Shown: one piece after another, positions 2,379-46,041 of the stretch
How the letters are laid out: each line of letters opens with the position of its first letter
How positions within the stretch are numbered: position 1 is the stretch's first letter
Assembly: GCA_001789045.1 (NCBI GenBank)
Contig: MFYG01000021.1
Location: forward strand, 13,341 to 77,340
Length of the DNA: 64,000 bases
Reading direction: 5' to 3'
From: Candidatus Peribacteria bacterium RIFCSPLOWO2_12_FULL_55_15
Lineage (GTDB): Bacteria > Patescibacteriota > Gracilibacteria > Peribacterales > Peribacteraceae
Notes under the pieces: generated by a model
The model's database searches: none
Told to the model about the DNA's origin: nothing
Seen by the model: only the letters and a program-made list of their open reading frames with translations
Translations under genes and position numbers: made by a program

Positions 2379-4691
2379 TCATAGACTCATGCCGATGGCT
2401 CTGAGGTTTTGTTCTTTCACTTGGTTATCTCTCTCTCCGATCCGATCTCTGATATCCCCAGTTGTGATAATGTTTAAATCGATGAGATAATGGAAGTTTT
2501 TGAGTTCTGTTCCAAGGAGTGCTTGGACCTTCGTGTGTGTGAGAATCTGGGCAATGATTGGTTCTGTCCATCGCTTGCGCATTTCTCCGATGAAGGTTGC
2601 GCGGGCTGTCTGTGGCAGACGGGTATACGATTCATGTAGCTGCCGGAGTAATCCGTTTACAACAGCTGCTGTAGGGAGTTTTCCATTCGTGTCGGGACGC
2701 AAGAGGTTGACAAAGTGGGCGGGAGGGACCAGGAAGAGCTCGCTGATGGTATTTCCGTAATCCGAATCGATTTTCGTGAGATCTACTGTTGCTGAATATT
2801 TCTCTTCGTATGCCTCTTCTATAGATTCACGGTATTTCACAAATTCCTCTATTGTGGGGTCGTAGATAGTGATCGCCCCGCCGGTTTGCGTGTGGACAGT
2901 ATTTGTCCCGAAGAGCTTGGCAATGGCGTAATCTAGGCGGTCTTCTGCCGAGGGACCGACGACATCTTTCCCATCTTTGTTTTTGTCCTGTTCATCAATG
3001 CGGAGGCCACCCCCCGCTCGTATGAGTTGCTCTGCTTTCCGAAAAGCTTTTTCGATGACGTGCTCTGCACCCATGGTGCCTTCCCTGGCACGTCTTATGT
3101 ATTCGGTACTCATGAATTTGAGAGTGGAGAGGAGGTGGCTCTGTGGGGCTGAACACTGTGGATCGAATATAAGACCACCGAATGATTTCAACACTGGTTC
3201 GGTGAGGTATGGGTGCTGTCCTGGCTGGAGTGCTCTAATGAGTTTTACTGCTGCCCATGTGGGAGTGTGGCCTAAATCTCCTTTGATGATGGCGCGTTTT
3301 ACAATGCCTCGTACGAAGTGGTATTCGTATTTTTCTAAGTGTGTCTGGATGTGGGGAATCATGTCCCATGCCTGTCCCTTTGCGCTTGCAAATGCAAAGC
3401 CTTCCTCTTCCTGTTTCTTCCCCGCCTGTTCGTTGCGCACTTCTATGGTGCGCCAGAATTCTTCATTCTGCATAGGAGTCCAATGGACGGGGAGTTTGAT
3501 GTTTTCGCCAATGTTTTTTCCGAAGCACGTTGCTGTTCCATGACTGCCTGTTTTCAGATTGTAGAGGGCACCTCGGCTCGACATGACATTGAGCCAGGCA
3601 CGGATTCGTGCTGGGCTAAAGCTCGAGCCTCTTTCTTGGAAGAGAGTAATGAGTTCTTTCGTTCCTGTTCGTTCAAATTCTCCATTCTCTGTCTTCATTT
3701 CTTTTTCTTCATTTTCCTCGAGATTTTGACGGAGCGTTCGTTGGAATTCATCATCGGGGATGAATCGTGCTGCTCCGTATGCCATGGATGCAGCACGGCG
3801 TTCTTTCTGTGTTTCCCATTTCCTTTTGTATGCTTCCCAGATTTTCTTCAGGGCAGCGGGAATAGCGAGGATTGTCATCGTGTTCTCCCACCCTTCTTTC
3901 AGGAAGCCTATTGGAGAGAAAATTTGTTTCATTTCATCCCAGTACGCCTTATTTTCTTCTTCGAATCCTTTGCGCATTTCTTGCACAGCTTTAAGGACGG
4001 GGTCGAGATATTCTGCGTATTTTTTCAGTTCTTCCTGAATCTGGGCCAACTTTATCTTTGCATTGACAGTCAGGCTGAGCTTTTTGATGATTTTCTCCTT
4101 TTCCTTCCCAAATTCTTCATCGTCTGGGTCTGTGTTGCGCCATTTGGTATCGATGTCGGGATATTGCTCTTTGATGCTTTGGAGTTCCTGTTCTAGATTC
4201 TGATGCATGGTGTCCATGGCGTGATCATCTTCGTGAAGAATGCGCATCCAGTGAGCGAAATCTCCTGGGGGGAGGTCTCCATTTTGGAATCGCTCGATGG
4301 TGTCAGCCTCGTTTTCCAAATGGGAGACGACATCGCGCTCGTGATAACAGTATGCGGCGATGTCTCTCACCTGATCCGCGATATCCACGCGGTCTTTATT
4401 TTGCTTATCCTTGGATTTTTTCCGTTCGCTCTTCTGGATTCCATCGAGCGCTTTCACAAAGCCACGATGGTCGATGAGGCGGAGGGCCTCATCCATCATT
4501 TCCCGGAGAGCTCTTGCTTTCGCGTAGAGGGATTCCTTCTGCTCTGGTTTCTGGAGCGTGCGTTCGGCATCTGTTCGCGTTACTTCCGTCACGATACCGG
4601 GTTGTGGTCCCACTTCTGTGGGGGGGTCCTCGGGATTGAGCTCGCCACTTCCTATATCTTCTGATGGTGGTGTTGGTCCTGTCTTCGTCAT
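2379..4691 (-). CDS. Large hypothetical protein (770 aa), charged and coiled-coil-rich N-terminal half, no motif recognised
   Basis: This is a long intact ORF with the same compositional character as its neighbours. Its start lies 1 nt downstream of the upstream gene's stop, which suggests an operon with 4693..5166 and dut. Confidence 0.6.
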   Translation of the reverse strand: MTKTGPTPPSEDIGSGELNPEDPPTEVGPQPGIVTEVTRTDAERTLQKPEQKESLYAKARALREMMDEALRLIDHRGFVKALDGIQKSERKKSKDKQNKDRVDIADQVRDIAAYCYHERDVVSHLENEADTIERFQNGDLPPGDFAHWMRILHEDDHAMDTMHQNLEQELQSIKEQYPDIDTKWRNTDPDDEEFGKEKEKIIKKLSLTVNAKIKLAQIQEELKKYAEYLDPVLKAVQEMRKGFEEENKAYWDEMKQIFSPIGFLKEGWENTMTILAIPAALKKIWEAYKRKWETQKERRAASMAYGAARFIPDDEFQRTLRQNLEENEEKEMKTENGEFERTGTKELITLFQERGSSFSPARIRAWLNVMSSRGALYNLKTGSHGTATCFGKNIGENIKLPVHWTPMQNEEFWRTIEVRNEQAGKKQEEEGFAFASAKGQAWDMIPHIQTHLEKYEYHFVRGIVKRAIIKGDLGHTPTWAAVKLIRALQPGQHPYLTEPVLKSFGGLIFDPQCSAPQSHLLSTLKFMSTEYIRRAREGTMGAEHVIEKAFRKAEQLIRAGGGLRIDEQDKNKDGKDVVGPSAEDRLDYAIAKLFGTNTVHTQTGGAITIYDPTIEEFVKYRESIEEAYEEKYSATVDLTKIDSDYGNTISELFLVPPAHFVNLLRPDTNGKLPTAAVVNGLLRQLHESYTRLPQTARATFIGEMRKRWTEPIIAQILTHTKVQALLGTELKNFHYLIDLNIITTGDIRDRIGERDNQVKEQNLRAIGMSL

Positions 4692-4692
4692 A

Positions 4693-5166
4693 TTAGAGTT
4701 TACATATTCTTATAATACTGTCAATGAACCACTCCCCGCGGTCGGAGAGTTCCGGAATGAATCTCGCAATCTGCAGTCGGATAGCAGTTGCATCGGTGTC
4801 CCCCGTTTGGATTTTCACCGTTTTCTGTTGCTTCCCTTCAAAAAACTCGATGTGGAGTTCGGTGTAGAAGGGGGTAGGAACCAGCCAAAATCCCGTACAG
4901 TTATCCCAGCGGATGATGGTGCCCTCGAAGAGGAAGCCTTGGAGAAAGATTTCGATTCGCTTTTCTGGTGGAATGTGGTCGTGTAGGAGGGGATAGAGGA
5001 GACCGCAGAGGAGCATGAGGAGGGAGAATATCCAGTTCTCTGTGTAGGCGCCGTAGCTTGCGAAACTTAGGATAATGATGAAGAACACGACGTACCAACG
5101 CATTGTCCGGTTGTGTTTCGGGTGAGATGGGGCGCTCCAACTGAGGATGGGTGTGAGTTTTTCCAT
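4693..5166 (-). CDS. Small membrane protein (two N-terminal TM helices plus a soluble C-terminal domain)
   Basis: Hydrophobic stretches WYVVFFIIILSFASYGAY and WIFSLLMLLCGLLYPLL are present. It is tightly coupled to the 770-aa ORF. Confidence 0.55.
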   Translation of the reverse strand: MEKLTPILSWSAPSHPKHNRTMRWYVVFFIIILSFASYGAYTENWIFSLLMLLCGLLYPLLHDHIPPEKRIEIFLQGFLFEGTIIRWDNCTGFWLVPTPFYTELHIEFFEGKQQKTVKIQTGDTDATAIRLQIARFIPELSDRGEWFIDSIIRICKL

Positions 5167-5969: not shown

Positions 5970-6096
5970 CTCCCCCGCCTGGGGAGGGAATGTTTGCCAT
6001 CCAGTACTGTCTAAGGTGCGAACATTCCCTAGAAATTACGAACTAAAAACTACAAACTGCAACGCGATCTCTGTGGAAAACTTTTCTGTTTTCCAC
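5970..6096 (+). other. Structured intergenic region with three hairpins and a degenerate 7-nt periodic tract
   Basis: CTCCCC-5nt-GGGGAG (5970-5986). GGGAATGTT-26nt-AACATTCCC (5986-6029). AATTACG AACTAAA AACTACA AACTGCA (6034-6061). A perfect 9-bp hairpin GTGGAAAAC-ttttct-GTTTTCCAC (6073-6096). Confidence 0.6.
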
Positions 6097-6118: not shown

Positions 6119-7240
6119 ATGCTTCCTGTTGTTGCCACACTTGCTTTTATTCTTCTCCTCACGGGTCTCATTTTGATCCACGAGGTTGGGCATTTCCTTG
6201 TGGCCCGTCTCTCTGGTGTCAAAGTTGAGGAGTTTGGTTTTGGCCTTCCTCCGCGTATTTTTACACTTTTCCATTGGCGGGGGACGCGTTTCACATTAAA
6301 CTCGATTCCTGTGGGAGGGTTCGTTCGTCTTAAGGGGGAGGGTGCTGTGACATCATCGGCACGAATGGCCAAAGGGAGTTTTGCGCGCGCAGGCGTTCTC
6401 CGTCGTTCAGCTATTCTCCTCGCTGGGGTAGGCATGAATTTTTTTCTTGCTTTTCTTATTTTTGTCATTGGGTTTTCCGTGGGCGGGTGGGTCCCGACGT
6501 ACCGAACCGTTTCAGAACTCAATGCTGCCCGTGAGCGCGGCGATATACAGTTCACTCCGAGTGTGGTTATTGAAGATGTTGTGGCTGGCGCGGGTGCGGA
6601 CAGAGCAGGTGTTCTGCGGCAGAGCATCCTTCTGAAGGTAGGTTCTGTTCTTGTCTATTCGCCGGACGATGTTGTCAGGGAGCAGATGGGCAAACAACAG
6701 GTGCTCTACACCCTTCTCATTGGATTTCCACATGAACAGGAGAGCGCTGTTTTGGTCAGAGTGCAGGATGGGAAAACGGGTGTGCTCCTTCGCTCGGTTC
6801 CGCGCGATCTCATTACCCGACCTCGTTCAATTGTCGCGTCGTCGGTTCTTGCCTTGCGTGAGTCCTGGGTTGTTATGGTACAGACGGTGCGTGGGATGGG
6901 GGCGCTTTTCCTTTCCGTGCTTCGGTCTGCGTCTGTTCCAAAGGAAGTGACTGGCATTATTGGCATTGCGCATTTGACCTATGCTTCTGTGCAGGAAGGT
7001 GTCGGGACATATCTTCGTCTTGTCGCACTTTTAAGTTTGAGTCTTGCTGCATTAAATGTTCTCCCGTTTCCCGCTCTGGATGGGGGGCGCCTCCTCTTCG
7101 TGTTTTTGGAATGCTTTTGGCGGAAGCCTCAAAGTCGGCGTATTGAGCTCACTATCAATATGGTGGGTTTTAGTGTGCTTATCGGTCTTATTGTTCTCGT
7201 GACGTTCTATGATGTCCTGCGCCTCTTCATTGTCTCATAG
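6119..7240 (+). CDS. rseP: Site-2 (M50) zinc metalloprotease RseP/YluC family
   Basis: HEVGHFLVA (HExxH), a PDZ-like middle region and NVLPFPALDGG (the LDG motif) are present. The start is uncertain: TTG 6101 or ATG 6119. Confidence 0.85.
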   Translation: MLPVVATLAFILLLTGLILIHEVGHFLVARLSGVKVEEFGFGLPPRIFTLFHWRGTRFTLNSIPVGGFVRLKGEGAVTSSARMAKGSFARAGVLRRSAILLAGVGMNFFLAFLIFVIGFSVGGWVPTYRTVSELNAARERGDIQFTPSVVIEDVVAGAGADRAGVLRQSILLKVGSVLVYSPDDVVREQMGKQQVLYTLLIGFPHEQESAVLVRVQDGKTGVLLRSVPRDLITRPRSIVASSVLALRESWVVMVQTVRGMGALFLSVLRSASVPKEVTGIIGIAHLTYASVQEGVGTYLRLVALLSLSLAALNVLPFPALDGGRLLFVFLECFWRKPQSRRIELTINMVGFSVLIGLIVLVTFYDVLRLFIVS

Positions 7241-8678
7241 TGCGCTCGTCCCGTCCGTAGTCCAAAAGGATTTCCGCGAGCTTTGGATTGATATTCTTCG
7301 CTTTGTTGAGCAGAAAATTCCGCGTACGCAGTTCATTACCTGGTTCCGGGATACCATGATTCTTGGAGAGGAGGAAGGGACGCTCATTGTGGGGCTTCCT
7401 CTTCCGATGTCTCTCAATTGGCACCTCGAGCACTATCGGGCAGTCACACTGCAGGCTGCACAAGCGATCCATTCGTCCATTGAACAAGTGGTGTATAAGG
7501 TGGATGTCGGGTTGAAAGATAATCCATCGCGTGCGATTGATCTTCTTCATCATTTTCCAGAGCAGAAGCGTCGCAAAGTTTCCGGAAGGCAAGAGGTGCG
7601 TCTCGCTGAGGGGATTGTCAGTAAAATTCTTAATCCACTCTACACGCTGGAGAATTTTGTCGTTGGAGCGAATAGTCGTCTTGCCTACGCTGCATCGCAA
7701 GCAGTGGCGACACAGCCTGGAGGGCGTTATAACCCCTTATTTGTCTATGGCGGCGTTGGACTTGGAAAAACGCACCTTTTGCAGGCTACAGGCAATGCCA
7801 TTCTCCGGCAGCGTCCGACCGCAATGGTGGTCTATACCACGACGGAGGATTTTACCAATCATGTCATCGAGGCAATTCAGCACCAGAAGATGGAACAGTT
7901 CCGGCGGCGGTATCGCGTCGTCGATGTTCTCATCATTGATGATGTGCAGTTTCTTGCGAACAAAGAGCGGACGCAGGAGGAGTTTTTCCACACGTTCAAT
8001 GCGCTCTATGAGGAACATAAACAGATCATTATCTCTGCGGATCGTCCGCCACAGGAACTGCAGTTGGAAGATCGTCTTACGTCACGCTTTGCGCGTGGCA
8101 TGATTGCGGATATTTCTGTGCCGGATTACGAGACACGTCTTGCGATTTTAGTGGAGAAGGCGCAGGAGTATGAGCTCTTCATCGATCGTGCTGTTCTCGC
8201 GTTCATCGCGGAGCATGTAACACAGAACGTGCGGGAACTGGAGGGGATTTTGATGCAGGCTGTTGCGCAGTACGAGTTGGAGCAATGCATGCCGACGATT
8301 AAGAGCATTGCGGATATCATGCGCAAACTCAATCATGATCCCCATGCCTCTGAGGATCAGGTAGGGTTCGAGTATCCGAAGCAGCGGAGTGCGACGTTCC
8401 AGGATGTCCTGGAAGCCGTCAGTCGGTATTACTCGGTATCCGTGCAGGATATGCTTGGCGCATCGCGTGTCCGTGAAATTCTCCTTCCGCGTCAGATTGT
8501 GATGTTCCTTTTAAAGAAATATCTCCGCACGAGCTATGTCCGTATTGGAGAAATCTTCAGTAATCGGGACCATACGACGGTGATGAATTCGTACAACAAG
8601 ATCGAAGAGATGCTGCAGAATGATCATCAACTCCTTAGAGAGATGCGGGCACTGGAGAAGGAAATGGATTTCGTGTAA
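7209..8678 (+). CDS. dnaA: Chromosomal replication initiator DnaA
   Basis: N-terminal domain (WIDILRFVEQKIPRTQFITWF), AAA+ Walker A GGVGLGKTHLL, Walker B LIIDDVQF, and a C-terminal DNA-binding domain (GEIFSNRDHTTVMNS). Its 5' end overlaps the rseP stop by about 30 nt. Confidence 0.93.
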   Translation: MMSCASSLSHSALVPSVVQKDFRELWIDILRFVEQKIPRTQFITWFRDTMILGEEEGTLIVGLPLPMSLNWHLEHYRAVTLQAAQAIHSSIEQVVYKVDVGLKDNPSRAIDLLHHFPEQKRRKVSGRQEVRLAEGIVSKILNPLYTLENFVVGANSRLAYAASQAVATQPGGRYNPLFVYGGVGLGKTHLLQATGNAILRQRPTAMVVYTTTEDFTNHVIEAIQHQKMEQFRRRYRVVDVLIIDDVQFLANKERTQEEFFHTFNALYEEHKQIIISADRPPQELQLEDRLTSRFARGMIADISVPDYETRLAILVEKAQEYELFIDRAVLAFIAEHVTQNVRELEGILMQAVAQYELEQCMPTIKSIADIMRKLNHDPHASEDQVGFEYPKQRSATFQDVLEAVSRYYSVSVQDMLGASRVREILLPRQIVMFLLKKYLRTSYVRIGEIFSNRDHTTVMNSYNKIEEMLQNDHQLLREMRALEKEMDFV

Positions 8679-8825: not shown

Positions 8826-10664
8826 ATGTCTAAACGTGTGCAAGCGCCGCATGGTAAGAAGTCCCACGATGCTCCATCGGATCTCGAAAAGATGCGCCAT
8901 TCCCTGGCGCATGTTCTTGCACAGGCGGTTCTGAAACTTTGGCCGGATACGAAGATCACAATCGGTCCGCCGATTGATTACGGATGCTACTACGATTTCC
9001 TCTTTCTAGAGCCTATTTCTGACGCCGACTTTCCGAAGATTGAAAAAGAGATGAGGAAGAGTATCCACCAGGGACAGACCTTCCGGTGTGACGCGCTTCC
9101 GACGAAGGACGCGAAGGCGTATTGGAAAAAACGCAAGCAGCCGTTCAAGGTGGAGCTCATTGAAGACTTAGAGAAGAACGAGGGTGTGAAGACGGTTACC
9201 CATTATGCGAATCTTGGTCCAAATGGCGAAGAGACCTTTGTCGATCTTTGTCTGGGGGGCCACGTTGCGAACCTGAGGGAGATTCCTGCGGATGGCTTTA
9301 TTATTCTCAGCATTGCTGGCGCTTATTGGCGAGGAGATGAGAAGAGGGGGCAGCTGACGCGGATCTACGTTGCGGCATTTTCCACGAAAGAGGAACTCGG
9401 TGCACATCTCCATATGTTGGAGGAAGCAAAAAAGCGTGATCACCGAAAATTGGGGAGGGAGATGGATCTCTTTGTGTTCAGCGATATGGTGGGGCCTGGT
9501 TTACCGCTTTGGACTCCGAAGGGGACTATCATTGCTGACGAGCTTGAGTGTCTTGCGCGGGAGACGGAGGCGGCTGCAGGGTATCTTCGTGTCCGCACGC
9601 CTCATATTGCGAAGGGGAAGCTCTACGAGCGGACAGGTCATCTCAAGCATTACCGGCAATCCATGTTCCCTCCCATGCAACTCGATGGGGAGGAAGCCTA
9701 TTACCTGAAGCCGATGAATTGCCCGCATCATCACGAGATTTTCGCGAGTAGTACGCGGAGCTACCGAGATCTTCCGATGCGTCTCTCGGAGTACGGGCAC
9801 TGCTATCGTTATGAAGACTCCGGGGCACTATTCGGCCTTATGCGCGTGCGATCGCTCTCGATGAATGATGCGCACATTTACTGCACCGAGGACCAGTTTG
9901 CATCGGAGTTTGTTGCTGTCATAAATATGTACCTGAAGTACTTTACGCTCTTTGGTATCGGGAAATATGTCATGCATCTCTCGCTCCATGATCCTTTGGA
10001 GCTCGGTAAGAAGTACGTGGATAATAGGAAGCTCTGGAAACATACGGAGGACATGGTGCGATGCGTCATGAAGCAGACTGGTTGCAATGTCATCGAGGTG
10101 CCGAATGAGGCGGCGTTCTACGGTCCGAAGATTGATGTAGAGGTATGGAGCGCCATTGGTCGTGAGTTCACTCTTGCGACAAACCAGGTGGATTTCGATG
10201 TTCCGACTCGCATGGGTTTGCGGTACGTTGATCGCGATGGTGTTTCGAAGGCGCCGCTCTGTATCCATCGTGCTCCCCTTGGTACACATGAACGCTTCAT
10301 CGGTTTCCTCATCGAGCACTTTGCGGGGCATTTTCCTCTGTGGCTCGCGCCCGTCCAAATCGGCTTGCTTCCGGTGGCGGAAAGTCATGAAAAGTATGCT
10401 CGTCCACTCGAAGGAGAGCTCCGCTCGAACGGCATACGCACGCAGTTTTTCGATCACACTGAGACGCTCGGGAAGCGCATTCGCGAAGGGGAGACAGCGA
10501 AGATTCCGTACCTCCTCGTGATTGGTGATAAGGAAGTTGGTGCGGATACGGTGACTGTGCGGAATGTCGCGACGAAACAGCAGGTGGTTGTGTCACGGAA
10601 GGAGTTTGTGGAAAAGACTGTGCACGATATTCGGGAGCGGAGACTCAAGTGCTCGATTGGGTGA
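8826..10664 (+). CDS. thrS: Threonine--tRNA ligase (no N-terminal TGS domain)
   Basis: HSLAH editing-domain motif near residue 25, class II motifs (KPMNCPHH, FGLMRVRSLSMNDAH) and an anticodon-binding tail are present. I chose the ATG at 8826; the track start at 8751 lies in the hairpin repeat. Confidence 0.9.
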   Translation: MSKRVQAPHGKKSHDAPSDLEKMRHSLAHVLAQAVLKLWPDTKITIGPPIDYGCYYDFLFLEPISDADFPKIEKEMRKSIHQGQTFRCDALPTKDAKAYWKKRKQPFKVELIEDLEKNEGVKTVTHYANLGPNGEETFVDLCLGGHVANLREIPADGFIILSIAGAYWRGDEKRGQLTRIYVAAFSTKEELGAHLHMLEEAKKRDHRKLGREMDLFVFSDMVGPGLPLWTPKGTIIADELECLARETEAAAGYLRVRTPHIAKGKLYERTGHLKHYRQSMFPPMQLDGEEAYYLKPMNCPHHHEIFASSTRSYRDLPMRLSEYGHCYRYEDSGALFGLMRVRSLSMNDAHIYCTEDQFASEFVAVINMYLKYFTLFGIGKYVMHLSLHDPLELGKKYVDNRKLWKHTEDMVRCVMKQTGCNVIEVPNEAAFYGPKIDVEVWSAIGREFTLATNQVDFDVPTRMGLRYVDRDGVSKAPLCIHRAPLGTHERFIGFLIEHFAGHFPLWLAPVQIGLLPVAESHEKYARPLEGELRSNGIRTQFFDHTETLGKRIREGETAKIPYLLVIGDKEVGADTVTVRNVATKQQVVVSRKEFVEKTVHDIRERRLKCSIG

Positions 10665-11676: not shown

Positions 11677-12066
11677 ATGTTTTCCCTTCTCCCAACTCTT
11701 GATGCGTTTCTGGGTGTTCTTTCGGATGATCCTGCTGCGCGGGTGTTCCAGCTCAGTGTTCTGTGTCTTGGTATATTTTCGGTCTATCTGCTCTTCTACA
11801 CGACACGCGATGTCCTTATCCGGAGTTCTTCCATTTCACTCCAACTTTTCTCTATTTTTCTCGTTGCTCTTCTGCCAGTGGCTGGGTTTTTCTTGTATCT
11901 CCTTTTCCGACCTTCACGGACTATTGCAGAGCGAGAGATGACAGAGATGCTCCGTACTCTTGCCCGCGGTCTGCGGTCTGCGGCAGCGATCCGCGGGGTT
12001 GCTAAGGCTGTGCGCTCAGTGGAAAGTCGGCGGGAAAAAGAGGCATCCATTCCTTCGCGTGCGTGA
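11677..12066 (+). CDS. Small membrane protein, PLD-nuclease N-terminal (PLDc_N)-like
   Basis: Two TM helices are present, the second ending LLPVAGFFLYLLFRP, which is typical of PLDc_N domains. Confidence 0.5.
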   Translation: MFSLLPTLDAFLGVLSDDPAARVFQLSVLCLGIFSVYLLFYTTRDVLIRSSSISLQLFSIFLVALLPVAGFFLYLLFRPSRTIAEREMTEMLRTLARGLRSAAAIRGVAKAVRSVESRREKEASIPSRA

Positions 12067-30076: not shown

Positions 30077-31411
30077 TCATAGGAGGGGATCGATGCGCGT
30101 TTTTCCGATGAAGATCCTCTGCTGCGGGGAAAGTTTGAGGGAACGGAGAGAAGCGACAATGCCGATGCGATCGAGGATGTGCAAAAGGCGTCGGACTGCA
30201 CTTGCATTCTTGGTATCGGTCATGGCAACGATCTGCTCGATACGTTTGCCACGAATGTACACCGTCGTTCCTTCTTGTGCGATCTGGTAACCGCTTGCGC
30301 GTGAGGAAGTCTGGTGGGGGCGTAGGACTGGGAGCGCGTTGTTGCTGGGCGCTTGGCGCTCGTTGCTTGGCGCGTTGCGTTTTTGTCGTTTCACGATGAC
30401 TAAAGGGAGGAGCTTTTTCTTAAGCTCTTCTGTGCCGTTTTTTGTTGCTGCCGAAAGAGTACAGAATACTTCGATATTTTCTCGCTCAAGTGACTGAATG
30501 ATGGCTTTCAATATCTGAGGTGAAAGGATGAGGTCAGTTTTATTAATGACGACGAGTTCTTGTTTTTCTGCGAGGAGCGGGGAGTATGCCGTGAGTTCCT
30601 TGCGAATGGTTTGGTAATCTTCGGCGATGGTATCGCTGTGAGCGCAGTCGAGGAGATGGACGAGGAGGCCACATCGTTCGATATGACGGAGGAAGCGGTC
30701 TCCTAACCCTTTTCCCGTACTTGCTCCTTTGATGAGGCCGGGAATATCGCAGACGATGTACGACGTGTCCGCTACTTTCACGACGCCAAGATTGGGGATG
30801 AGAGTGGTGAACGGATAGTCCGCAATGCGTGGGCGTGCGGAGCTTATGGCGGAGATTAATGTTGATTTTCCGACATTCGGAAGTCCGATGATGCCGATGT
30901 CGGCAATGAGTTTCAGTTCAAGTTTGTATTGTCGTTCCTCTCCCGGCTCGCCGAGCTCTGCAAAGTCTGGGCGTTGGCGAATGGAATTAACGAAGTAGGC
31001 GTTGCCGCAGCCTCCGCGCCCGCCGCGGGCGATGGTGACTTGGTCACCAGATTTTTCGAGATCAGCCAGGAGAACAAATTCCCCCTCCATGTGGGAGGGG
31101 ATTTCCCGCCCTTCCTTTTTTTCATAGACGAGGGTTCCATGGGGCACTTTCAAGACAAGATCATCTCCATCACTTCCGTGGCATTTTTTCCCTCCTCCCA
31201 TTTTTCCATCTTCGGCCGTGAAGCGTTTCTGGGAGGCGAAGGCGCTGAGGGTATCGGTATTGTCATCTGCGACGAGACACACGTTCCCCCCATTTCCTCC
31301 ATTCCCTCCATCAGGGCCTCCTTTTGGCACATATTTTTCCCGTCGCCAGGAGACAGACCCGCGTCCTCCATCCCCTCCACATGCTGTGATGATCACTTCA
31401 TCGAGGAACAT
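30077..31411 (-). CDS. obg: GTPase Obg/CgtA
   Basis: MFLDEV.I....GDGG.G..S.RREK, the glycine-rich GGPDGGNGGNGGNV, the G domain GLPNVGKSTL, and a C-terminal OCT-like domain. Confidence 0.93.
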   Translation of the reverse strand: MFLDEVIITACGGDGGRGSVSWRREKYVPKGGPDGGNGGNGGNVCLVADDNTDTLSAFASQKRFTAEDGKMGGGKKCHGSDGDDLVLKVPHGTLVYEKKEGREIPSHMEGEFVLLADLEKSGDQVTIARGGRGGCGNAYFVNSIRQRPDFAELGEPGEERQYKLELKLIADIGIIGLPNVGKSTLISAISSARPRIADYPFTTLIPNLGVVKVADTSYIVCDIPGLIKGASTGKGLGDRFLRHIERCGLLVHLLDCAHSDTIAEDYQTIRKELTAYSPLLAEKQELVVINKTDLILSPQILKAIIQSLERENIEVFCTLSAATKNGTEELKKKLLPLVIVKRQKRNAPSNERQAPSNNALPVLRPHQTSSRASGYQIAQEGTTVYIRGKRIEQIVAMTDTKNASAVRRLLHILDRIGIVASLRSLKLSPQQRIFIGKTRIDPLL

Positions 31412-40630: not shown

Positions 40631-41092
40631 CTATGATTTTCCTTTCGATTGTTCCGCCGTAATGTTGACGGTCAACGGTTGTTCCACTGCACCGATGGTA
40701 ATAGCGACGGTGAAGGTGCCGAGGGCTTTGATTTGGGATGGGATTGCGATGGCCTCCGGTGGGATCTCGAGGTTGTGCTGTTCTTTCAGTGCTTCGCTGA
40801 TCGCTTTCTCGGAGATCGCCGCGTAGAGCTTGCCGGTCTTCGTGGTTTTCTTTGTGAAGGTGATGAACTTTCCGGCAAGCGCGGCGGCTGCCCCGGCTTG
40901 CAGGGCTTTCTCTTGTTCCTTCTCTTCCATGCGCTTCTTGATGGCTTCCGCGTAGAGCTTGCGGACGGTGGGGGTCGCGACGATGGCGAGGCGGCGTGGG
41001 AGGAGGTAATTCAGCGCAAAACCGTTCTTCACCGTGAGTAGATCGCTTTTCTTGCCGACCGTTGCGACGTCGTGGAGGAGGAGGATGTCCAT
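40631..41092 (-). CDS. rplI: 50S ribosomal protein L9
   Basis: MDILLLHDVATVGKKSDLLTVKNGFALNYLLP is the L9 N-terminal signature. I chose the ATG at 41092. Confidence 0.88.
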   Translation of the reverse strand: MDILLLHDVATVGKKSDLLTVKNGFALNYLLPRRLAIVATPTVRKLYAEAIKKRMEEKEQEKALQAGAAAALAGKFITFTKKTTKTGKLYAAISEKAISEALKEQHNLEIPPEAIAIPSQIKALGTFTVAITIGAVEQPLTVNITAEQSKGKS

Positions 41093-41151
41093 TAGAGTGC
41101 GGCAGCTTGTTGACAGAGGCCCGACGATCTTAGGGGAGGTCTTGAAGAGCG

Positions 41152-42354
41152 TCAAATAGCCTTGTTGACCTCTTGGTCACTTTTTTGCGCTATTGGTGGC
41201 ATATGTGGGAAGGAGATTGCCATATACCATTTCCACGATGTCCGGTCGTTGTCCGGTCCGACGAAGTCGAACCACACTTCTTCGAAGAATGCTCTCTTTA
41301 TGAATCGTTCTGGCATGTCCCATGCCGGGTCTGCGAGCACGACGTATTCCGGTGTGATGTCGATGACGACGGAGTAGTGGTCTCCGTCCCTGTCGAACCA
41401 TCCGACGATGACTGGGATGCCCTGTTTGACGTACTGCTCGACATCTGCGAGCAATCCTTGCTCTTTCTCTGTCACCGTTGCACCGACATGCTGCGCTGCG
41501 CGCACCAAACCTTCATGTTCCGTCCCATGCTCTGTGGACGCACTGGCGAGTACTGCGAGTTCTCCTTCTGTCATTTCCTTCCCAAAGGCGGAGAGCGCAA
41601 TTTTCAGAGAGGCTGGTCCGCACATGTTCTCGCTCTGTTCGCAGTGTTTCACCATGACCGGCCGGCTTTTCCGCGGTTGCTGCGCGACATAGAATTTTTT
41701 GATGATCTCCCGTGAAGAAAGGTTGTAGAAGGGGTATGCCCGTTCACCAGGGAAGGCTGCCCCCTCTTTTCGTCGGAGGATGCGCTCTGCCACCAGTGCG
41801 CATTCGTGGGCGATGTCGTAGGTCAATCCTTCTGTATCCATGCGTTTTCGTTCCTCGAGCTCGTGTTCGAGAACAAAGGGTATCTCGCGTGGGTCCATTT
41901 TCCCTTCAACCCATACCTCATTTTTGGGGATGTAGTTGTACACCAGGTCGTGTCCCCCAAGGACGAACTCCGGGTCCAGATAGCTTCGTACAATTTTCCC
42001 ATCGACAATGCCTATTGTGAGGGGGCCGCGCGTTTCTCTTTGAGTGATGAATGGGGGTGGCGGTTCTCCTCGCAGGAAGCCGATTTTTCTGAGTGCTGTG
42101 ATGAGAGCAGCCCGTGATTCTGCTTGCAACGAGTCTATGATGCGATCACTGGCAAGGAGAAACTCGATTTCGTCGGCGAAGCAATGGTCAACCCATATCT
42201 CATTTTTGGGGATGTAGTATTTCGGAGAATACGTATTCCAGTCGGAGTTTCCTTGGTGGATGATGTTAAAATCCGTGTCGAGAGTGTTACGAATGAGGTA
42301 TGCATCAACGAGCATGATGTTCTCCTGCGCGGTATCGACGGAGGATTTTTCCAT
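41152..42354 (-). CDS. Cytoplasmic protein with a duplicated N-terminal domain and a C-terminal C39-like (papain-fold) cysteine peptidase domain
   Basis: Internal repeat (YIPKNEIWVD... / YIPKNEVWVE...). The C-terminus has NMCGPASLKIAL (Cys), GDHYSVVI (His) and LADP. There is no signal peptide and no ABC transporter fusion. Confidence 0.55.
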   Translation of the reverse strand: MEKSSVDTAQENIMLVDAYLIRNTLDTDFNIIHQGNSDWNTYSPKYYIPKNEIWVDHCFADEIEFLLASDRIIDSLQAESRAALITALRKIGFLRGEPPPPFITQRETRGPLTIGIVDGKIVRSYLDPEFVLGGHDLVYNYIPKNEVWVEGKMDPREIPFVLEHELEERKRMDTEGLTYDIAHECALVAERILRRKEGAAFPGERAYPFYNLSSREIIKKFYVAQQPRKSRPVMVKHCEQSENMCGPASLKIALSAFGKEMTEGELAVLASASTEHGTEHEGLVRAAQHVGATVTEKEQGLLADVEQYVKQGIPVIVGWFDRDGDHYSVVIDITPEYVVLADPAWDMPERFIKRAFFEEVWFDFVGPDNDRTSWKWYMAISFPHMPPIAQKSDQEVNKAI

Positions 42355-42387
42355 ATATTCGCCACTGCCAAAGTAGGTGTTTTTTTC

Positions 42388-43539
42388 CTATTGTGGATTG
42401 CGTTGAATTATTTTTTGGTGTCGCGTATGTATTGAGATGCTGAGTATGATGCCAAAGAGGAAGAATGCGGCGAGGAATTTTCCGAGCGTGCTCAGAAATA
42501 GTGCAGCGACACCAAATCCTATTCCGAAAAATATATTCATTCCAATAATGCGTCGTTCGGACCATCCCCGTGCAAGGAGGCGGTGGTGGAGATGTTCGCC
42601 CTGCGTGCTACCGGAGAAAGGAGAGCGACCGGCAACGATGCGTTGCGCAATGACGATGAGGCAATCAGTGAAGGGGACGCCGAAGGCGAGGAATGCCGTA
42701 GCAACTTTTCCTCCGGCGTAGATCGTGAGGATGCCGAGCATGAGGCCGAAGAACATCGTGCCGGTGTCGCCCATAATGGTGCGGGGAAATTGAAAATTAA
42801 GAATTGAGAATTGAAAATTCCGTTGTAGTGGGAAGTCAAATAGAAAGCAGCCTGCTGCGATGCTTGCGAGGATGAAGGCGAGGAGCGCAACGGATGGCTG
42901 GTTGACGCGTGTGCTCAGCGCGAGGAGGCCGATCACCGCGAAGCCGATCACCGAAAGGCCGCTTACTTGCCCCGTGATGCCGTCGAACCAGTTGAGGGCA
43001 TTCATGGCGAGGCAGAGCCATGTTACTGTGAATATGCCGGAGAGGAGGGGGAGGGGAGTGAGGAAAATTGAAAATTGAAAATTGAAAATTGAAAATTGCG
43101 ATGGGATGTCAATCGCATCGAGTTTGAGGTAGGGGATTCCTGTCAGGTATTCCAGTGGGTTGGTGATGGTGTATATGCGGCTTCCGGTTGCAAAAATGAT
43201 GATGGCGGCAATGATCTGGATTGCGAGACGGAAGGAGGGGGGGAGGGGAGTGCGGTCGTCGATGAAAGAGACGAGTCCGAGGAGGAGGATGCCGGCGATG
43301 ATGCCGGTGTTTTGGGAATTAAGAATTGAGAATTGAGAATTGAGAATGGGGGTGACGAGGATAAAGAAAATGAGGAATACGAGGATGGCAACAATTCCTG
43401 TGGGGTAGGGGAGTCGTAGGCGGCGGAGGCTGTAGCGCTCGGGGAAGTCGAGGAGGCCAATACGCGGAAAGATGTACGTTGCAGCAGCGTGGAGAATGAC
43501 GCAGAGCGTGAAGGCTAGTACAGGAGTCCAGAACAACAT
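42388..43539 (-). CDS. Glycosyltransferase family 4 (WecA/TagO/MraY-like polyprenyl-phosphate sugar-1-phosphate transferase) carrying three heptanucleotide-repeat insertions
   Basis: VSFIDDRTP, NALNWFDGITG (NxxNxxDGxDG) and IMGDTGTMFFG are present in a polytopic membrane protein. Confidence 0.8.
   Translation of the reverse strand: MLFWTPVLAFTLCVILHAAATYIFPRIGLLDFPERYSLRRLRLPYPTGIVAILVFLIFFILVTPILNSQFSILNSQNTGIIAGILLLGLVSFIDDRTPLPPSFRLAIQIIAAIIIFATGSRIYTITNPLEYLTGIPYLKLDAIDIPSQFSIFNFQFSIFLTPLPLLSGIFTVTWLCLAMNALNWFDGITGQVSGLSVIGFAVIGLLALSTRVNQPSVALLAFILASIAAGCFLFDFPLQRNFQFSILNFQFPRTIMGDTGTMFFGLMLGILTIYAGGKVATAFLAFGVPFTDCLIVIAQRIVAGRSPFSGSTQGEHLHHRLLARGWSERRIIGMNIFFGIGFGVAALFLSTLGKFLAAFFLFGIILSISIHTRHQKIIQRNPQ
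42785..42819 (-). repeat. Heptanucleotide tandem tract A (5 units; plus strand GGAAATT GAAAATT AAGAATT GAGAATT GAAAATT)
   Basis: Read directly from the sequence. It encodes NFQFSILNFQF, immediately before the conserved P-x-x-I-M-G-D-T-G catalytic loop. Confidence 0.9.
43063..43097 (-). repeat. Heptanucleotide tandem tract B (5 perfect GAAAATT units on the plus strand)
   Basis: Read directly from the sequence. It encodes SQFSIFNFQFSIF. Confidence 0.92.
43314..43348 (-). repeat. Heptanucleotide tandem tract C (GGGAATT AAGAATT GAGAATT GAGAATT GAGAATG on the plus strand)
   Basis: Read directly from the sequence. It encodes ILNSQFSILNSQ. Confidence 0.9.
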
Positions 43540-43576
43540 GTATATAAGTGTAGCAATAGTTCTGTATTATTGATCC

Positions 43577-44776
43577 ATGCAGTATCGGACTCTTGATCAG
43601 GCGGACATGCGGGGGAAGCGTGTGCTGTTGCGGGCGGGGTTCGATGTTCCCATGGAGCATGGCCGTGTTCTCGATGCGGAGCGCGTACGGGCGGTGCTTT
43701 CCACCATGCGCGCCATCCTCGATGCGGGGGCGTCCCTCATTCTCCTCGCGCATCAGGGCCGGCCGAAGGGGGAGGGGTTTGAGGCTGTATTCAGCCAGAA
43801 ACCACTTGTTCCAGTCCTTGAGAAACTCCTCAATGTCTCTGTTGCATTTGCCCCGTCGTGCGTGGGTCCAGAAACCCTGGCCCTTGCTCTGGCCCTTCGC
43901 CCCGGTCAGGTTCTCCTCCTCGAAAATCTCCGCTTCCATAAGGGGGAGAAGAAGAACGACCCCGCGTTTGCCAAGGAGCTCGCGCACCTTGGCGATTTGT
44001 ATGTCAATGATGCCTTTCCGAATATGCACCGGTCGGATGCGAGCATGGTTTGGGTGGCGAAGCTCTTGCCGTCGTACATGGGCATCCGTTGCGCGGAGGA
44101 GGTGCGGCATCTCTCATCCGTTCTCGAGGATCCGCGCCGGCCTTTGACGGTCATTATTGGGGGGGCGAAGATGGAAACGAAAATTCCCGTTATTGCGTCG
44201 TTTCTCACATCTGCGGATGACATTCTCCTCGGTGGAACAATCGCGAACACGTTCATTGCCGCGCGGGGGTTTGCAGTCGGCCGATCGAAGTATGAGCCGG
44301 CGTTCGTGCCGCGGGCACAGGAGTTCATGTTGGAGGGGGAGAAAGAGGACTTGGCAGACATTCACGTTCCTCGCGATGCGGTGGTGGCGAGCGAGCCGAA
44401 GGAGGGGGCCGCCACGCTGGACATTCCTTTGGAGGATATCGAGGGCGACATGGCGATCTATGACATCGGCTCGGTGACGGCGGAGCGGTACGCCGTGCGC
44501 ATCGCGGCGTCGGGAATGGTGGTGTGGAACGGGCCGGTGGGAATCTATGAAGTTCCCACGTTTTCCCGCGGCACGCGGCGGCTTGCGGAAGCCATCGCAC
44601 GCGCGACGCGGGAGAGGGGAGTTGCGTCGATTGTGGGAGGCGGCGACACGCTGGATTTTCACAAGCGCTGCGGTCTGGATCTCTCCCCGTACTCGTTCGT
44701 GAGCACGGGTGGGGGAGCTATGCTTGAGTTTCTCTCAGGGAGGCAATTTCACGCACTGGAAGCCCTGTCTCTGTGA
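43577..44776 (+). CDS. pgk: Phosphoglycerate kinase
   Basis: KRVLLRAGFDVP, HQGRPKG, GGAKMETKI and GGGDT are present. Confidence 0.95.
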   Translation: MQYRTLDQADMRGKRVLLRAGFDVPMEHGRVLDAERVRAVLSTMRAILDAGASLILLAHQGRPKGEGFEAVFSQKPLVPVLEKLLNVSVAFAPSCVGPETLALALALRPGQVLLLENLRFHKGEKKNDPAFAKELAHLGDLYVNDAFPNMHRSDASMVWVAKLLPSYMGIRCAEEVRHLSSVLEDPRRPLTVIIGGAKMETKIPVIASFLTSADDILLGGTIANTFIAARGFAVGRSKYEPAFVPRAQEFMLEGEKEDLADIHVPRDAVVASEPKEGAATLDIPLEDIEGDMAIYDIGSVTAERYAVRIAASGMVVWNGPVGIYEVPTFSRGTRRLAEAIARATRERGVASIVGGGDTLDFHKRCGLDLSPYSFVSTGGGAMLEFLSGRQFHALEALSL

Positions 44777-46041
44777 CAATCATTTCTTCTACACAGGCTA
44801 AGCTTCATGCGTATTTTGATGGTGGCCTCTTTCCCCTTCCACGGCTACGTGTATTTTGCCTGGTTGGAGTAAGTGTTCTTCTGTTTTTCTTTGTTGTAGG
44901 ACGTCTTCTTCCATCTGCAGAAGTGCGAGTAATGTCCAGGGAGGACACCATTAGCCGTACGGCGAATATTTTCCTTGTTCTTTCTGGTTCTCTTGCGGAT
45001 GTCCCGCGCCGCGTGCGGGTGCTGCCTCTTATTCCTCTGACTGCTGTGTTGCAGGAGACAGTGACGTTCGACCAGATAAGTAAGAAATTTATGGGGATGT
45101 CTGCAGAGGTTTGGATGACTATCGTTAATACATCGGCGGAAGAGTATTCTTTTCAGAAAGGGACGCGTTTTATGAATCAAGCTGGCGTCATTGTTCGTCT
45201 TCAGGAGAGTGTACGGATTCCTGTGGGGGGGACCTCTCGCGTGCGTGCGAAGGCGGATGAGTTTGATGTGTACGGAGAGATCATTGGTGAGCGGGGGAAT
45301 ATTCCTGCCGGTCTCAAATGGGAAATCCCCGGTCTTTCCAAGGAAGAGCGAACGCGTGTCTATGGTGAAAATTTGCAGGCGGGAACGGGGGGAACGACAC
45401 TCTACAGCACAGTGCTCCGCGCGGAGGATTTGCAGGCGGCGCAGCGCATGCTTGAGCAGGAACTCCTGACAGCCGCCAAACAGATGGTTGAGGAAGAACG
45501 TGTTTTATGGAATGCCCAAAAGGAAAATGCGTGGCTGGAGATTCTTTATTACCCAGAACTTACTCGGCTTACATATGCAGATTTCATTCTTCCTAAGCAG
45601 TTCATTGGTGAGGAAGTACGCACGGTTCCCGTGGAGGGACGCATTACGTACACAGTTCTTGCCTATGATGCCCAGGCTCTTCTTGATCTCTTGTCTGATG
45701 AACTGACGGCACATGTGCGCGATGAGAGGGAGATTATGCCAGATACCTTCCAGAGGGACAGATTAACCGTTCATGTGATTGATTACGCAGATGATATCTC
45801 GTGGGTCAAGCTAACTGTGGATCTAAACGGGAAAGAACGGTATGTGCTCGATCAATTCTCTCCCACAGGGGTCGTGTTTGGTCGCCGTGTTCGCGAAAAA
45901 ATTGCTGGACTTTCGCAGAGGGATGCGCTCCAAATTCTCCGGAACATGCCGGAAGTGCAAAAAGCAGAAATTTCTCTCTGGCCACCATGGAATACCAGGA
46001 TATCGACGATACCATCGCATATTGTTATTACAGAGCAGTGA
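44773..46041 (+). CDS. Hypothetical membrane-anchored protein (422 aa); weak resemblance to baseplate-J-like proteins
   Basis: The GTG start overlaps the pgk stop (GTGA). There is an N-terminal TM (VFCLVGVSVLLFFFVVG). The motif GERGNIPAG is reminiscent of the Baseplate_J G..GN..AG; this was not verified. Confidence 0.5.
   Translation: MTIISSTQAKLHAYFDGGLFPLPRLRVFCLVGVSVLLFFFVVGRLLPSAEVRVMSREDTISRTANIFLVLSGSLADVPRRVRVLPLIPLTAVLQETVTFDQISKKFMGMSAEVWMTIVNTSAEEYSFQKGTRFMNQAGVIVRLQESVRIPVGGTSRVRAKADEFDVYGEIIGERGNIPAGLKWEIPGLSKEERTRVYGENLQAGTGGTTLYSTVLRAEDLQAAQRMLEQELLTAAKQMVEEERVLWNAQKENAWLEILYYPELTRLTYADFILPKQFIGEEVRTVPVEGRITYTVLAYDAQALLDLLSDELTAHVRDEREIMPDTFQRDRLTVHVIDYADDISWVKLTVDLNGKERYVLDQFSPTGVVFGRRVREKIAGLSQRDALQILRNMPEVQKAEISLWPPWNTRISTIPSHIVITEQ

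Follow-up and report, generated by a model that had tools for sequence, protein, structure and literature searches.

Three in-frame heptamer-repeat arrays in a PNPT-family transferase gene of Candidatus Peribacteria are probably fixed insertions tolerated in loops

Within a 64,000-nucleotide stretch of DNA from Candidatus Peribacteria bacterium RIFCSPLOWO2_12_FULL_55_15 (contig MFYG01000021.1; hereafter the window), a gene for a membrane enzyme of the PNPT family (WecA/TagO/MraY-like; 42388-43539, minus strand) carries three arrays of a heptanucleotide repeat with the coding-strand unit CAATTYT. We conclude that the three tracts are probably fixed and translated repeat insertions, tolerated in loops of the enzyme and kept in frame by selection. 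The arrays belong to a class of heptameric tandem repeats already described in bacteria, of which the short tandemly repeated repetitive (STRR) sequences of cyanobacteria are classical examples. A preliminary description of the window had mentioned such a tolerated STRR-like heptamer beside its own proposal of slipped-strand switches, and the loop positions and wide occurrence of the arrays support it.

Results

Three heptamer arrays are translated in loops of a PNPT-family enzyme

Tandem Repeats Finder (TRF), run over the window, located three period-7 arrays of 33-36 nt each within the transferase gene, and all three are translated in frame on its minus strand. Array A (42785-42819; TRF 42787-42819, 4.7 copies, 84% matches) mixes CAATTTT, CAATTCT and TAATTTT units, about 4.7 altogether, and encodes the peptide NFQFSILNFQF inside a 13-residue insert (residues ~238-251). 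Array B (43063-43098; 5.1 copies, 100% matches) is a perfect (CAATTTT)5 followed by a C, encoding QFSIFNFQFSIF at residues 148-159. Array C (43312-43348; TRF 43312-43347, 5.1 copies, 89% matches), with about five units, reads ATTCT(CAATTCT)3 TAATTCC on the coding strand and encodes ILNSQFSILNS at residues 67-77. The copy numbers of 4.7-5.1 per site fall within the range of 3-6 that is typical of heptameric simple sequence repeat (SSR) arrays, and the spacing of the three arrays along the gene is 251-278 nt. Since 7 and 3 share no factor, a run of three units encodes QFSI(F/L)N(F/S) in any frame. The coordinates, unit, copy number and frame given in the preliminary description were thus reproduced by TRF (within 2-3 nt) and by translation of the open reading frame (ORF). 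Its statement that the window holds no other such tract was also borne out. A search that allowed up to 3 mismatches to AATTGARAATTGARAATT gave 9 matches in the window, all within the three tracts, where shuffled sequences lead one to expect 0.27. Elsewhere, TRF found only weak period-7 stretches of other units, namely CTACAAA at 6029-6062 (4.9 copies, 70%), GCGGTCT at 11966-11983 (2.6 copies) and GCTTGGC at 30344-30373 (4.3 copies, 69%). The first of these appears to fall between ORFs.

The product of the gene, a protein of 383 amino acids, matches the Pfam family PF00953 (Glycos_transf_4) with E = 1.1e-19 and 71.4 bits against a cut-off of 27. The match places it in the PNPT superfamily and agrees with the WecA/TagO-like class assigned to the gene at the outset. 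A phmmer search with this protein against solved structures gave no direct sequence match, and MraY was reached only through profile and fold searches. A profile built from 120 homologues retrieved MraY 9zno (E = 3.6e-9). An AlphaFold2 model based on 120 homologues (mean predicted local distance difference test score, pLDDT, 90.7; predicted template modelling score, pTM, 0.91) adopts the multi-helix membrane fold of MraY and DPAGT1, its best Foldseek matches being MraY 6oyh, 8cxr and 5ckr (E ~1e-8, TM 0.66-0.81) and human DPAGT1. The acidic and histidine motifs of PNPT enzymes (DD, NxxNxxDG, MGDxG and HxH) are all present, and D94, D95, N180, N183, D186, G187, G257, D258, G260, H316 and H318 are invariant in the alignment of 120 homologues. 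Relatives of the protein come from Peregrinibacteria/Patescibacteria, and their source records name them undecaprenyl-phosphate N-acetylglucosamine (GlcNAc)-1-phosphate transferase. The putative WecA/TagO-subtype activity (UDP-GlcNAc:polyprenyl-phosphate transferase) takes its label from these homologue names.

Placing the arrays on the model revealed that each encodes part of an interhelical loop. Array C forms the loop joining the second and third helices (H48-66 and H75-96), where pLDDT falls to ~80 at residues 61-70. Array B lies in a long loop after the fourth helix (118-164; pLDDT 60-78 at residues 141-160), and array A in the loop that joins H215-235 to H257-274 and leads straight into MGD258TG (pLDDT 62 at residues 241-250). 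The three inserts are the only weak pLDDT blocks of the model. By analogy with the topology of MraY (PDB 4J72), we take the loops of C and B to face outward and that of A to be cytoplasmic, beside the catalytic aspartate. The insert at site A, which the preliminary description had singled out as an unusual insertion before the catalytic loop, does adjoin MGD258TG and occurs among the 120 homologues only in the window protein and in the 90%-identical P0002.

No inverted partner, palindrome, flanking or target-site duplication, or terminal inverted repeat was found around any array in the gene. The arrays thus lack the marks of inserts resembling miniature inverted-repeat transposable elements (MITEs) or Rickettsia palindromic elements (RPEs), and a hairpin or MITE structure was rejected for want of an inverted partner in the gene. 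A known RNA family was likewise rejected, there being no Rfam match down to E = 1 across 41000-45000.

Array lengths are identical among assemblies

We then compared the locus among assemblies. Eight contigs, each from a different assembly, show 100% identity in the 1500 nt that surround the gene, except for 2 single-nucleotide polymorphisms in one of them, and an exact-protein look-up found the 383-residue product on 22 contigs. Four NCBI records, from metagenome-assembled genomes of Candidatus Peribacteria bacterium, also contain this exact protein. No difference in unit number was seen among the 8 contigs compared as DNA or the 22 with the exact protein, although these assemblies are near-clonal and represent consensus sequence only, so that their power to show switching is limited. 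A look-up anchored on the product of the neighbouring gene pgk returned only intact 383-residue genes and no split gene, plus three contigs (L188, L189 and L190) that stop within the gene. Among the best 120 protein hits there was no high-identity truncated fragment, all of them spanning at least 90% of the query.

The three contig ends lie at window position 42976, outside the arrays, or in poly-G junk. Since none falls at an array and one is poly-G junk, we rejected them as a sign of heterogeneity. L190 begins with a poly-G-rich, low-quality chimera (1-244) in which array B appears in garbled form; this contig end is an assembly artefact of that sample and not a variant allele. That the arrays themselves are an assembly or sequencing artefact can be dismissed with near certainty. 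AT-rich low-complexity repeats are prone to mis-assembly, and three contigs do stop within the gene, but the sequence is identical in 8 assemblies from different pipelines, and orthologues from unrelated samples carry arrays at the same sites. The P0002 protein shares the exact sequence of the window protein, with all three inserts, up to about residue 290, and the two differ in the C-terminal 90 residues. As this allele is a mosaic, it does not count as independent evidence for array stability.

Orthologous arrays differ in three-unit steps

To follow the arrays over longer times, we made a codon alignment of DNA from nine orthologues with 58-76% identity. All were found through intact proteins, so that frameshifted alleles would escape. 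At site B, a perfect (CAATTTT)5 is shared by the window, L007 and L191. Five units are also found in L010 (with substitutions), L195 (a mix of CAATTAT and CAATTTT), L192 (CAATTCT type, two of them decayed) and L008 (all decayed), and L009 has 4.7 units. L193 and P0009 carry two units, exactly 21 nt shorter, and in L194 the array is not recognisable. The five-unit state thus persists in orthologues down to 58% identity. The insert at site C is present in this series only in the window, L007, L191, L008 and L194, is mostly decayed in the four orthologues, and falls into two length classes (10/11 and 17/18 residues) that are 7 residues apart. That at site A is restricted to the window lineage.

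Every allele of the series is in frame. Apart from single-codon differences within each class, the array-length differences between orthologues amount to three units (21 nt). In addition, unit variants have spread inside arrays, with CAATTAT in 3 of the 5 units of L195 and the CAATTCT type in L192, which is concerted evolution. Three-unit steps together with the spread of variants match the expectation for slippage filtered by reading-frame selection. In a comparison of the window with L007 (76% identity), nucleotide identity rises to 96-100% at gene positions ~337-560 (window 42980-43203), centred on array B, and is 56-76% elsewhere. The block appears to be a tract of recent recombination across the array.

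The same arrays occur in unrelated genes of other phyla

We scanned one genome per GTDB species for exact matches to (CAATTYT)4 or longer and found at least 120 loci. Those listed come from Bacteroidales, Saprospiraceae, Acidobacteriota (65-68% GC), filamentous Cyanobacteria, Planctomycetota, Chloroflexota, Desulfobacterales and Clostridia, and include three lineages of the candidate phyla radiation (CPR), namely Saccharimonadales, Yanofskybacteria and Peribacteria. The listed arrays are mostly 30-40 nt long and mostly close to gene boundaries. When a simple ORF criterion was applied, 18 of them lay deep within long ORFs, and half of these (9/18) sit in frame in Pfam-confirmed genes. The genes encode an IleRS-type class I tRNA synthetase, ValRS, a MiaB-like radical-SAM enzyme, shikimate dehydrogenase (AroE), Fmt, UvrC, phosphatidylserine decarboxylase (PSD), AcrB and a GT1 glycosyltransferase. 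One of them, the Fmt gene, belongs to another Candidatus Peribacteria genome and has (CAATTTT)n at L101 4443-4477; a second is the UvrC gene of a Candidatus Yanofskybacteria genome, with (CAATTTT)n at L114 2744-2774. The unit therefore recurs at unrelated places within and between genes. As the Fmt array lies in another Peribacteria genome, the CAATTYT array is not specific to the transferase gene, and, with the UvrC array, an element confined to that gene was rejected. The reverse complement of CAATTYT has TGA in all three frames; ORFs therefore cross the arrays only in the CAATTYT sense, and those on the opposite strand end there.

Period 7 dominates in these loci; it has 208 perfect arrays of at least 3 copies, and no other period between 4 and 12 exceeds 11. 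Other units account for 79 of the 208, and they are of 52 kinds. CAATTYT was found in 44 viral contigs, and three composition-matched control heptamers in 19, 23 and 45. The controls being about as frequent, CAATTYT is one unit of many, and together with the 52 other units in the same loci this weakened the notion of a special universal motif. A superfamily of TGA-bearing heptamers found no more than weak enrichment (30 of 79 arrays, 22% expected). A text search of the literature for the repeat string returned five hits, none of them relevant (primers or eukaryotic sequence).

Some of these loci have features of their own. In IleRS-type and ValRS genes of a Chloroflexia and a Bacteroidales genome (L064 ~7700-7813, L087 ~980-1088, also L071 and L068), a mutated, stop-free copy in the opposite orientation lies ~6-8 codons upstream of the in-frame array. 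The encoded peptides read ...ENAKLKIEK... or ...DNLKLKIEN... and then QFSILNS..., and such an inverted pair could form a hairpin. Two arrays of L091 (Prevotellaceae; 2242-2294 and 6903-6941) share identical 12-nt flanks and differ in unit number (53 and 39 nt), as do two of L038 (Clostridiales; 4076-4109 and 4824-4864). Identical flanks with unequal units imply that these arrays lie inside a larger repeated element whose copies slipped independently.

Surroundings of the arrays

The transferase gene is single-copy, syntenic and conserved across Peregrinibacteria. It diverges from pgk, with a 37-nt spacer (43540-43576) between the two start codons, and this arrangement is retained in orthologues. 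With so short a spacer, each promoter must overlap the coding region of the other gene. Inside the transferase gene, TRF also reported a 15-nt tandem repeat of the unit AGGCCGATCACCGAA at 42926-42961 (2.4 copies, 80% matches). It is unrelated to the heptamers, is in frame (5 amino acids) and encodes VIGFA/VIGLL, part of a membrane helix. The independent contigs L188 and L189 both stop at window position 42976, 15 nt past this repeat.

Heptamers of other units occur between genes in L007, L009 and L010. In L009 (58% identical), (AGTGGAT)4 at 9962-9990 fills the 45-nt spacer directly upstream of the transferase start codon at 10001, and (TCCACTT)3 lies at 6479-6500. Arrays of the AAAGTGG type recur in the further Peregrinibacteria loci L149 and L176.

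Discussion

A history of tolerated insertion

The reading that we consider probable can be set out as follows. Arrays of ~5 CAATTYT units would have been inserted in the one orientation that leaves the coding strand free of stop codons in every frame, and each would add a flexible loop of 11-13 residues that a PNPT enzyme tolerates, presumably remaining active. From the distribution among orthologues, gain in the Peribacteria lineage was probably sequential, B first, then C and then A. Slippage would continue over evolutionary time, and selection on the reading frame would pass only changes of three units (21 nt, 7 amino acids). Slippage and local recombination may keep some arrays pure, while others, once broken by point mutations, would decay into ordinary coding sequence. 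As far as we have found, the unit itself, its presence in CPR bacteria, the occurrence of a single conserved membrane enzyme with three in-frame copies in its interior and the position of one of these beside the active site are new.

Several observations weigh against this reading. Codon identity of array B is 11/11 in comparison with L009, where the background is 0.36 (P ~1e-5), 11/12 with L191 and 9/10 with L010. The likeness to L007 follows from the recombination tract, and in the other lineages it needs homogenisation, recombination, repeated gain or selection at the DNA level. Such synonymous conservation exceeds what the protein needs, and the tolerance of a loop peptide does not predict it. 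Clustering is a further difficulty. In 135.6 kb of clade sequence (the 64-kb window plus 72 kb of clade loci), 12 of 12 CAATTYT-type arrays sit in the transferase gene, which makes up 8.1% of that sequence. A search for close relatives in Joint Genome Institute (JGI) metagenomes yielded almost only 47-55% identical orthologues without arrays and says little on strain-level variation; the 608 kb around the orthologues of this identity hold no CAATTYT array. The transferase gene thus looks like a hot spot, for which passive tolerance offers no explanation. Moreover, it is difficult to see how inserts of ~35 nt with one unit could have grown stepwise at three sites without passing through frameshifted states. 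Finally, sampling through intact proteins and near-clonal consensus assemblies would miss frameshifted alleles.

Alternative explanations

The preliminary description had seen in the gene three separate slipped-strand ON/OFF switches, that is, a contingency locus in which high-rate slippage by single units toggles the glycan-initiating enzyme in subpopulations and three arrays raise the rate. Its arithmetic is correct, in that gain or loss of one unit shifts the frame, and the gene does hold three arrays, pure enough to slip, of a unit whose length is not a multiple of 3. Its class is typical among phase-variable surface functions, all arrays of the unit in the 136 kb of clade sequence fall within it, and the spread of unit variants within arrays shows that slippage occurs. 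There is also a precedent in neuO, whose coding-region heptanucleotide repeats leave the gene ON only if their number is divisible by 3 (PMC13001214). Nevertheless, we regard switching as unlikely, even at a low rate. A switch should leave length variants and OFF alleles, but unit number does not vary in the 8 and 22 contigs, and the 10 sequences compared, including the window, are all in frame (near-clonal samples and intact-protein orthologues). Site B keeps five units at 58-76% identity, arrays change in three-unit steps, and the best 120 protein hits include no high-identity truncated fragment. The arrays are short, with ~5 units as against 3-53 in neuO. Across Peregrinibacteria the gene is conserved, in single copy and in synteny, and the same arrays lie in frame in essential genes elsewhere (aminoacyl-tRNA synthetases, Fmt, UvrC), where switching is implausible.

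The excess synonymous conservation of array B could instead reflect a function of the nucleic acid, the arrays serving as factor-binding sites or as antisense or internal promoter-like elements for pgk, with the loop peptides as a by-product. Many arrays elsewhere lie within ~20 nt of start codons in either orientation, as reported for TAACTGA, and factor binding has been proposed for the TAACTGA and Geobacter heptamer arrays. The 37-nt spacer makes the pgk promoter overlap the transferase gene, and the only two sigma-70-like matches in 42300-43700 lie on the plus strand inside arrays A (42790-42818) and B (43068-43096). Each reads TTGAAA-17-GAAAAT (9/12), antisense to the transferase and pointing at pgk. 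These matches are weak, however, and not in excess of chance (two, against a shuffle mean of 1.1), and they stand 480 and 760 nt from pgk. No Rfam match, inverted partner or structure accompanies the arrays. Arrays have decayed or been lost in L008, in L194 and at site C of L007, yet the gene and its synteny remain, and sites C and A are absent from most relatives. Nor is the unit special, control heptamers being about equally common in viral contigs. We judge a function of this kind to be quite improbable.

A further alternative concerns origin. Pre-formed arrays of ~35 nt might have been copied in by template switching, ectopic conversion or an unknown mobile mechanism and not grown in situ, growth by 7-nt steps being a process that would traverse frameshifted states of a conserved gene. 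Copying would account for one unit at three sites of one gene, 251-278 nt apart, and for in-frame arrays in many unrelated genes. It is in keeping with the two L191 arrays, both pure CAATTTT, with the recombination shown by the 96-100% identity block around array B in L007, with the ancestral AAT-ACA-CAA at site C, which resembles a unit junction, and with the repeated finds of identically flanked arrays in some Bacteroidales and inside L091 and L038. On the other hand, a search around the arrays found neither a target-site duplication nor a terminal inverted repeat nor an associated gene, and no array was caught in the act of moving. The diversity of units in the same genomes (52 others in 79 arrays) is better fitted by a general slippage bias than by one mobile element. 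Copying in is thus a tentative and somewhat unlikely account. An extended form of it, which we offer as speculation and think unlikely to be right, is that pre-formed blocks of ~35 nt, of CAATTYT and perhaps of heptamers in general, are copied across phyla by an unrecognised templated or mobile process, which would settle them in conserved genes with the stop-free strand as the coding one. The same glycan-initiating gene would have been struck three times in Peribacteria, possibly because low-rate slippage helps an episymbiont vary its surface.

Returning to fixed insertions tolerated in loops, three features stand out as unusual: the presence of three arrays in one gene, the excess nucleotide conservation of array B, and the restriction of the clade arrays to the transferase gene. 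Coding heptamer repeats are easily misread as phase-variation switches, and the present case provides a test that needs no reads to tell the two apart. A switch should have freely varying unit numbers and many OFF alleles, whereas a tolerated repeat should have a fixed number and change in three-unit steps. An AT-rich heptamer array that lies in frame within conserved genes of CPR bacteria and several phyla, in one instance beside a PNPT catalytic aspartate, bears on genome annotation, on protein-family alignments and on why period-7 repeats are favoured in bacteria.

Comparison with known repeat systems

The arrays have in-frame counterparts among selfish elements. Rickettsia palindromic elements are selfish DNA of ~100-150 nt whose in-frame insertion in protein genes gives the products additional surface loops with no loss of function. 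Like them, the arrays described here are short repeated DNA in frame in conserved genes; unlike them, they are tandem heptamers and have no palindrome.

A parallel in gene function is neuO of E. coli K1 (phage CUS-3). Its (AAGACTC)n repeat also consists of coding-region 7-nt units in a surface-glycan enzyme, encodes a 7-residue peptide repeat and keeps the frame only at certain unit numbers. In 64 genomes, neuO had 3-53 heptanucleotide repeats, 65.6% were OFF, and single cultures were mixed (PMC13001214). It thus has one long array at the 5' end, variable in length and mixed in culture, whereas the transferase gene has three short arrays of ~5 units in internal loops, with no variation among assemblies and only three-unit, in-frame differences between species.

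Heptameric repeats are over-represented among bacterial SSRs, and polymerase slippage has been proposed as the cause (PMC4692102). The cyanobacterial STRR sequences and the GGGAATC/GGGGATT repeats of Xanthomonas and Nostoc are heptamer tandems too, with ~4 units preferred and lengths that vary between relatives (PMC4692102), and several CAATTYT matches lie in filamentous cyanobacteria. Unlike these repeats, the CAATTYT unit is AT-rich, unstructured and, in the transferase gene, coding. Geobacter metallireducens has heptanucleotide elements of GGACCGG (x4, 49 copies) and MTYCTGA (x5) (PMC2700814); these are GC-rich, belong to a proteobacterium and occur in many copies per genome, whereas the arrays here are found in one gene of the 64-kb window.

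The TAACTGA arrays of Beggiatoaceae, Cyanobacteria and Bacteroidetes resemble ours in several respects. They lie mostly just upstream of start codons (MacGregor 2015, PMC4679880); a minority fall within ORFs, which read the stop-free strand, and the distribution of the arrays points to horizontal spread with no evident mechanism (PMC4679880). Both TAACTGA (2-6 units) and CAATTYT form short arrays in which one strand has TGA in every frame and the other has none, both are mostly intergenic near start codons, and both are patchy in phylogeny. The unit on the opposite strand here, RAATTGA, is two positions off TAACTGA. The copies of TAACTGA inside ORFs are found at protein termini or in hypothetical proteins, whereas the three CAATTYT copies of the transferase gene occupy loops inside a conserved enzyme, in one case adjoining the active site.

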